In this document: positions 47,924-48,113 of the stretch, one piece after another | Position numbering within the stretch: position 1 is the stretch's first letter | How the letters are laid out: every line of letters starts with the position of its first letter | NCBI GenBank assembly: GCA_964016885.1 | Contig: OZ024763.1 | Coordinates: 12,338,001-12,402,000, forward strand | Origin: Eledone cirrhosa | Lineage: Eukaryota | DNA length: 64,000 bases | Reading direction: 5' to 3' | Made by a program: the position numbers and the translations under genes | The notes under the pieces: model-generated | Databases searched by the model: none | What the model saw: the letters and a program-made list of their open reading frames with translations, nothing else | What the model was told of the DNA's origin: nothing

Positions 47924-48113
47924 TAACCCCCGAGAAGTTCGGCTATTTATTTACCAGGCTAAAAATTCTTATTTAGTCCAGAAATAGCCGTCGAAATGGC
48001 TTGAGCTCAGCCGTCAGGGTCATACTTGTTCCTATTACCCACTCTACTACCCTAAGTATTGAGTACCTTGGTGCGTTATGGTCCATCTGGTTCCTTACCA
48101 CAATTCCTTCGTT
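47924..48113 (+). mobile_element. Non-inverted family B copy retaining the complete (core-mutated) hammerhead
   Basis: taaccc-CCGAGAA-gttcggctattt..ggctaaa/tttagtc..aaatagccgtc-GAAA-tggcttgagctcagccg-TC-agggtca, plus a tail ending in (TA)n. Confidence 0.75.

Follow-up and report, generated by a model that had tools for sequence, protein, structure and literature searches.

The window analysed here is a stretch of 64,000 nucleotides from Eledone cirrhosa (contig OZ024763.1), numbered from its first letter. At 47793-48115 it contains the truncated 3' end of a Hydra-clade Penelope-like element (PLE) of a repeat family called family B, and, as judged from sequence, this end holds a type I hammerhead motif. 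The features of this copy are as follows.

47793..48115, plus strand: truncated 3' end (pseudo-LTR, pLTR) of a Hydra-clade PLE, 5'-truncated and without a mirror arm, from matches to genomic copies
47911..47920, plus strand: CC(A/T)6GG box upstream of the core, a possible promoter element
47925..47929, plus strand: hammerhead stem I 5' strand, ACCCC in the family, here AACCC
47930..47936, plus strand: core positions 3-9, mostly UUGA-N-AA in the family, CUGAGAA in its own subfamily, CCGAGAA in the window copy
47937..47992, plus strand: stem II, with G10.1 (47937) paired to C11.1 (47992), followed by a small internal loop
47940-47948/47982-47990 and 47957-47963/47972-47978, plus strand: lower helix and upper hairpin of stem II
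47973..47978, plus strand: TTAGTC motif, with A 47975 as the edge at which fold-back arms begin and the putative transcription start
47993..48015, plus strand: GAAA, stem III (47996-48000/48010-48014), palindromic loop GAGCTC (48003-48008) and C17 (48015)
48016..48020, plus strand: stem I 3' strand, GGGGT in the family, here AGGGT
48036..48115, plus strand: tail of 80 nt that separates the element's two 3' ends (48035 and 48115, from arm ends), followed by (TA)n

The pairings and core pieces that an earlier note had named in 47924-48025 were all located, namely cggctattt (47940-47948) with aaatagccg (47982-47990), ggctaaa (47957-47963) with tttagtc (47972-47978), and CCGAGAA (47930-47936), GAAA (47993-47996), GTC (48013-48015) and GAGCTC (48003-48008). 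The copy was the only one of its family in the 64-kb window to reach the core, and cleavage is likewise predicted after C48015. A stem I was present, with the proposed strands (accc/gggt) off by one base from the family pairing ACCCC/GGGGT of 5 bp, because the window copy has an A at 48016 and an A at 47926. The predicted motif of this copy stands out from chance only through the evidence of its family: the fold of the copy alone gave a z-score of -1.83, with 11 of 200 shuffled sequences folding equally well, which is a modest result, and an Rfam scan of the window and of 47800-48110 found no hammerhead match for this copy. The window copy shows a C3.A8 pair, a U4C change at a position where the core requires U, and a stem I broken by two changes. 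It belongs to a C3.A8 subfamily (19 of the 29 nearest copies read CCCCTGAGAA), and with the U4C and stem I changes added it is probably inactive as a ribozyme. A minus-strand hammerhead was rejected, as no core was found on that strand of the copy.

The earlier description of family B as a hammerhead element was right about the motif and understated its carrier, which is the pLTR of an autonomous PLE. A search of the 3.0-Gb genome with 47900-48110 retrieved 29 copies (from 40 that were scored out of 2686 candidates), which were 95-96% alike and most of which matched the window copy at 95-96%. They shared a common 3' end followed by (TA)n, varied in their 5' cut points and often had an inverted copy upstream, and the longest extended upstream into a GIY-YIG reading frame. 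The protein from these GIY-YIG copies, searched against the genome, yielded many open frames of about 784 codons. A tandem array elsewhere in the genome consists of intact units of 3531 bp, 99.97% alike, each with a 717-aa ORF that starts 91 nt past the 3' end of the previous unit; 47793-48115 matches the intact unit at 87%. The ORF carries the motifs RWR, DKT, YRDD, CxCX5C, VIY/YIG, CxxC and CxH with a C-terminal endonuclease (EN), so that a single ORF combines RT and GIY-YIG endonuclease, as in EN+ PLEs. Partial tandems as pLTRs, an inverted 5'-truncated copy and a one-sided tail, further traits of EN+ PLEs, were also seen. Among the 7996 scored, the 717-aa protein had 2049 homologues (E<=1e-20) with an identity of about 40%, and a Pfam scan of the EN piece and of the whole ORF matched no family.

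The protein marks of the Hydra clade and its (TA)n target are given in the consulted sections of PMC8557442 (Craig et al. 2021). Family B shows the C-terminal EN, DKT, CxCX5C, CxxC and CxH, no GxKF, and RWR in the place of RWK, and its insertions lie at (TA)n targets. As the motifs of the 717-aa ORF correspond to these marks, 47793-48115 is interpreted as a truncated pLTR, and family B is, by its encoded protein, a Hydra-clade PLE, an assignment made from reference proteins compared by eye and not from an RT tree. Naiad was rejected because EN lies C-terminal in the family B element, Neptune/Nematis because DKT and CxCX5C are present, and a non-LTR retrozyme, for the window copy, because that copy is single and its parent is protein-coding. 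At L041/L042 (G000:C1:437198000-437214000) and at other loci there are many intact, near-identical ORFs and tandem arrays, which suggests that the youngest subfamily was mobile very recently. Distant pieces of PLE protein (34-47% identical) lie near older-subfamily copies at L305, L306, L309 and L315. Similar small hairpins were observed directly behind each 3' end site (L041 4287-4311 and 4370-4391; window 48036-48065).

The hammerhead of the intact unit reads ACCCC-UUGAGAA-G and has a U3-A8 core. A core pattern with G5, A6, A9 and G10.1 fixed gave 7187 genome matches, and the first 100 listed, all on chromosome C1 and with mirror pairs counted twice, were tallied by hand. In these 100, position 4 was T in 99 and position 8 was A in all, position 3 was T in 75 and C in 25 (the C giving a C3.A8 pair), and position 7 was G in 58, A in 19, T in 12 and C in 11. 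Every one of them had U3-A8 or C3.A8 and none the canonical CUGANGA. A core lacking position 7 was rejected, as position 7 varies freely. Given A at position 8 throughout the first 100, the consensus CTGANGA-gacggctatttc forecast for the family is not its sequence; the family stem II begins G-N-T-CGGCTATT, and gacggctatttc is simply the stem II 3' strand reverse-complemented, as seen in a mirror arm. In the older subfamily (first 100 of 444 matches listed) the pair was U3-A8 in 90, U3.G8 in seven, C3-G8 in three and C3.A8 in none, and among all listed copies C3-G8 was confined to these three.

An alignment of 53 rows was built: 25 came from the 30 family-B core loci, 26 from the 30 older loci, and the other two were the window copy and a single intact unit; L243, L304, L313, L320 and L323 were excluded as truncated or deleted and L257-L260 as near-duplicates. 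Conservation was high at U4 (52 rows), G12 (50), A13 (52), A14 (53), A15.1 (52), U16.1 (49) and C17 (49), which corresponds to a type I core and an NUH cleavage site, while conservation at G5, A6 and A9 was set by the search patterns and is not independent. The 3-8 pair was U-A in 45 rows, U.G in three and C.A in five. The GAGCTC loop of stem III was kept in 39 of the 53 copies, and a mismatch next to G10.1-C11.1 was found in 50. A C3.A8 hammerhead core is expected to be poorly active. The U3-A8 core is described as a natural and active variant in the consulted portion of PMC3088659 (Perreault et al. 2011), and U3-A8 hammerheads of Schistosoma PLEs in that of PMC4209133 (Cervera and de la Peña 2014); the literature searched contained no paper combining hammerhead, G8A and C3U. 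One copy, L300 1420-1525, joins an older-subfamily core and stem II 5' strand (U3.G8) to a family B 3' half and is an intermediate or a recombinant.

The hammerhead pairing was occupied in 87.7% of the cells of the 53 rows, compared with 27-50% for slid partners. Compensatory changes in stem II (GC24/AU22, GC25/UA13 and UA27/AU22 of 53) lie between two subfamilies. Four pairs changed on both sides, a number reached by 440 of 500 shuffles and so not above chance; the covariation amounts to about three events between two subfamilies. The minimum-energy fold of the 98-nt motif of the intact unit, at L041 4177-4274, was the hammerhead, with three helices of which helix I was open, and stem II was the most stable helix of the motif. 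RNAalifold, run on the 53-row alignment, returned another, weak fold and not the hammerhead. The cost of the hammerhead relative to the best fold was nil for the intact unit, a median of 4.1 kcal/mol over the mutated rows and 8.4 kcal/mol for the window copy. When the downstream 5' UTR was added, the predicted best fold was a competitor and not the hammerhead, and a competing hairpin GCCGUC-GAAACGGC was predicted. The upper hairpin of stem II was not kept in register in the older subfamily.

Most family copies in the window are fold-back stubs, that is, two inverted arms without a core. The following were identified (no strand is assigned to a stub as a whole).

1357..1642: fold-back stub; plus arm from 1502, homologue of A 47975, preceded by an extra G at 1501
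5143..5318: fold-back stub, older subfamily
5394..5568: fold-back stub, short arm cut further
8668..8864: fold-back stub, long arm paired with short arm
9102..9178: fold-back stub whose long-type arm is very short
24722..24905: fold-back stub; plus arm from the A homologous to 47975 (24845)

The spacers that had been pointed out in two of these, tatttgagtc at 1496-1505 and agtccag from 24845, were recovered, and both begin at the A homologous to 47975 (at 1502, after the G, and at 24845). The stub at 1357-1642 departs from the usual pairing of a long and a short arm in that both of its arms extend to the outer 3' end. A sample of 1.264 Mb, chosen regardless of the element, combined the window with 120 stretches of 10 kb whose positions were preset, and contained 84 arms, 19 in 0.6 Mb of chromosomes C1-C4 and 65 in 0.664 Mb of small chromosomes. 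Of their 3' ends, 42 were at the equivalent of 48115 and 27 at that of 48035, 80 nt apart, and among 28 head-to-head pairs the usual form had one arm of each kind, which implies two cDNAs. The 5' limits were clustered: of the 81 arms of at least 36 nt, 63 began in the 3' strand of stem II, past the cleavage site, at a distance of 121-150 nt from the end, with 49 of them at 134-146. Only three of the 81 included the hammerhead core, and two began near the cleavage site. This distribution indicates that the template was uncleaved, and a run-off at the cleavage site was rejected because just two arms in 81 begin there. Junction bases, read by eye, showed overlaps of 0-5 nt, short templated inserts and A runs, resembling end joining.

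The mirror arm reproduces, in exact reverse complement, the 3' strand of stem II and not the natural 5' strand, and the palindromes are two short copies placed head to head, not a pairing of stem II. The idea that the centre of the palindrome is stem II therefore stands in so far as the turn falls within the stem II 3' strand, and fails in so far as the palindrome was equated with the stem II hairpin itself. Similarly, the catalytic 5' strand said to have been lost from the fold-backs is indeed absent, probably having never been copied.

The A of TTAGTC (47975), whose homologue in the intact element is L041 4226, is position 140 from the element end, and many arms begin there, often with an extra G; the edge is not confined to a single base, since arms reach 143-145. 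TTAGT or TCAGT was kept in 49 of the 53 aligned rows while the upper hairpin differed, and older-subfamily stubs turn at TTAGT too, despite their different upper hairpin. We take this motif to resemble an initiator element. Of 50 family-B loci, 45 have a CC(A/T)6GG box upstream of the core, as do 18 of 30 loci of the older subfamily; it lies about 60 nt upstream of the break edge, and that at 47911-47920 is CArG-like. Its inner letters differ across subfamilies (CCATATAAGG, CCATATATGG). Genome-wide, the base before AGTCC was G in 5050 exact matches and A, C or T in 21131, of which the first 100 listed had T (templated) in 73, C in 23 and A in four; one base further in, 6902 matches were split into T 45, C 40 and G 15. 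None of 30 G loci continued upstream as element, and 12 of the 30 could have drawn the G from the partner arm. This source was avoided by counting only arms that abut A/T-only sequence: the base right after ATATATAT was G in 39 and C in four (first 100 of 406 listed); when the next base inward was taken instead, the first 100 of 138 listed had G in 18 and C in 11 (Fisher p 0.006). With both TA registers pooled, the ratio of G to C was 46:16 versus 25:19 (p 0.09), the split by register having been picked after the lists were seen. The G was probably added, because changes of T to G are not expected to exceed those of T to C.

Copies that read on into the 5' UTR numbered 144. When the 59 outermost were taken, 47 kept the full upstream pLTR, which indicates that many templates had started further up, and 12 broke at most 100 nt upstream, eight of these at 136-143 and one with a G. 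Copies primed a long way downstream share this stopping point. Four contig sets placed on the intact pLTR gave a summed depth that, in two runs, increased some 8- to 11-fold at the break zone; such depth cannot reveal a start or a cleavage and was not counted as evidence. An extra G is reported as a copied cap at full-length L1 insertions in the consulted text of PMC11702581, and PLE transcription starts are placed in the pLTR of Drosophila virilis Penelope in that of PMC2377424 (Schostak et al. 2008). The literature that was searched (excluding subscription journals, Repbase/Dfam and most supplements) contained neither an RNA start inside a PLE hammerhead nor a cap G in PLE stubs.

Taken with the sequence evidence, the position of the edge suggests that capped transcription probably starts inside the hammerhead, near 47975. 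The pLTR promoter would start most transcripts no more than about 5 nt from the A of TTAGT, or at that A itself, and RNAs started at 47975 would lack core positions 3-9 and would not self-cleave at their own 5' end. The RT/endonuclease would then cut the (TA)n target and prime both strands at two points within the RNA, 60 and 140 nt away from its start; double internal priming on uncleaved RNA has been shown in vitro for another PLE, according to the consulted part of PMC11167929. Both cDNAs would run off the template end, with the cap copied as G, and end joining would link them head to head, with inserts, microhomologies and minor losses. The whole hammerhead would be present only in read-through RNA from tandem units, and the copying of this RNA without cleavage would give rare long copies such as the window copy. 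The U3-A8 form would be likely to cleave, as monomer or dimer, and the C3.A8 subfamilies and the window copy to cleave poorly or not at all. We consider it fairly probable that the locus is a pLTR with a mostly U3-A8 type I hammerhead and that the stubs are paired cDNAs run off an RNA capped at the A of 47975. What the sequences show is the element itself, its motif with the covariation, both 3' ends, the cluster of 5' breaks and the extra G. A wider form of this start-site reading is given slightly less assurance, at a little better than even, namely that the family keeps a C3-G8, U3.G8, U3-A8, C3.A8 series of the core pair, and that one locus gives both an abundant capped RNA with the substrate half only and a rarer read-through RNA with a complete hammerhead, the stub junctions being fossils of the start site, cap included.

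A different view of catalysis, compatible with the start inside the ribozyme, is that the hammerhead is a relic serving as a promoter or protein-binding scaffold and that no subfamily cleaves. C3.A8 subfamilies have been amplified (25 of the first 100 listed, and the 19 of 29 nearest copies with CCCCTGAGAA), the mismatch after G10.1-C11.1 occurs in 50 of 53 rows, the GCCGUC-GAAACGGC hairpin is a predicted competitor and the RNA that was copied was uncleaved. The free position 7 between held positions 4 and 8 would not be expected of such a relic, nor would the C3-G8, U3.G8 and U3-A8 series with its compensatory changes in stem II, and U3-A8 is reported as natural and active in the consulted part of PMC3088659, so we regard the relic as unlikely.

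RNA structure itself might set the break, a view nearest to that of the earlier note, if RT stalls in stem II or the cDNA snaps back on it, with RNA of the whole hammerhead as source. The breaks do fall in the 3' strand of stem II, which is the most stable helix, and an AAATA/TATTT microhomology was seen at some junctions (L121). However, mirror arms are exact copies of the 3' strand and not of the natural 5' one, the loop is not preserved, paired arms end at different 3' sites, and the stops lie past the strong lower helix. In the older subfamily, whose upper hairpin is different, the edge also tracks TTAGT; stem II is traversed by 47 of the 59 longer copies, and the added G is left unexplained. 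Together these points make a structural origin of the break unlikely.

The template's 5' end might instead arise by processing, through a nuclease near the stem II loop or a TTTAG splice acceptor, with the extra base added by RT as terminal transferase. Introns are known in PLE 5' UTRs, the edge lies beside the apical loop with AG dinucleotides at 47975-76 and 47980-81, and poly-A-like additions occur at some junctions (L155, L180). Yet the arms retain the AG that splicing would remove, no recurring upstream exon sequence was seen at the junctions viewed, and the sequence of the motif is conserved with a CC(A/T)6GG box about 60 nt upstream; processing is accordingly judged improbable. Least probable is that the stubs form a short, non-autonomous element that multiplies by itself, with a break inherited from a few master stubs: although stubs far exceed core-bearing copies (three of 81 arms) and some junction types recur, junctions vary from copy to copy, both arms share the subfamily marks of long copies, and an identical edge is found in copies that run on to the ORF side.

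If transcription does start inside the ribozyme, the capped substrate-half RNA could not cut itself in cis and would be the source of tens of thousands of stubs, these would be explained without cleavage or hairpin snap-back, and PLE start sites would be readable from DNA junctions alone. Hammerheads of PLEs, inverted truncated copies and the tail are already known, and the start inside the ribozyme would be new. The role of the hammerhead in the PLE cycle is stated as unclear in the consulted text of PMC8557442. Family B offers a single predicted start base within a ribozyme, a large count of run-off products, intact copies that are nearly identical, and natural core variants, some with the 3-8 pair and some lacking it, that were amplified.

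In comparison with known systems, the parts of the sources consulted being the basis throughout, family B agrees with the Hydra-clade PLEs of PMC8557442 in its single ORF with RT and C-terminal GIY-YIG, DKT, RW(K/R), CxCX5C, CxxC and CxH, in (TA)n targets, partial tandems, an inverted 5'-truncated copy and a one-sided tail, and in a sense hammerhead in the pLTR. The Hydra-clade motifs in file S2 of that paper all share a CUGANGA core, with 3-7 bp in stem II and 1-3 nt in the loop of stem III, whereas family B has mostly U3-A8, a stem II of 54-56 nt and a palindromic stem III loop of 7-9 nt. It also differs from the Hydra elements described there in its unit of 3.5 kb and tail of 80 nt, and from the Hydra-1_Obim family in a comparison made by eye only. 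Schistosoma Cercyon hammerheads (PMC4209133) and natural U3-A8 cores (PMC3088659) share with it U3-A8 for C3-G8, type I topology, a long stem II, a short stem I and a palindromic stem III region that permits dimers. These, however, are minimal hammerheads without a stable stem III, while the stem III of family B comprises 5-6 bp and its hammerhead could adopt a monomer fold, and unlike in those systems one genome here holds C3-G8, U3.G8, U3-A8 and C3.A8.

The Anolis Poseidon element PAc (Frangieh et al. 2024, PMC11167929) resembles family B in two internal RT starts that define the tail, extension of both target strands, an uncleaved RNA template and AT-rich targets. PAc belongs to a different clade, and the consulted text of that paper mentions no start inside the ribozyme, break hot spot or cap-derived G. 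As in D. virilis Penelope (PMC2377424), the start site would lie in the pLTR with an Inr-type motif, and as in full-length L1 insertions (PMC11702581), run-off copies have an extra G at the 5' junction. The 5' UTR intron of Penelope ends at helix I (PMC4209133), which would place the Penelope start upstream of the ribozyme, whereas that of family B would lie inside it.

A separate minus-strand locus (L356, G000:C2:356029800-356032500) contains a tandem array of at least eight units of 299 bp, 298-299 of 299 positions alike. The unit derives from the intact element and comprises a U3-A8 core, both 3' end sites, the 5' UTR and the first codons; in its stem II the upper hairpin is deleted as far as the A homologous to 47975. 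As non-coding tandem units each with a hammerhead, the array corresponds to a retrozyme, and by its sequence it looks like a newly born one, consistent with the consulted part of bioRxiv 10.64898/2026.07.22.740005; the predicted best fold of the unit is not the hammerhead. Within the window, 18819-22294 is an AT-rich microsatellite of about 3.5 kb with a GC content of 0.14-0.23 and was a source of spurious miRNA matches. A near-perfect hairpin at 40657-40743, with a weak MIR399 match on both strands, does not belong to family B and is possibly a stub of another family.
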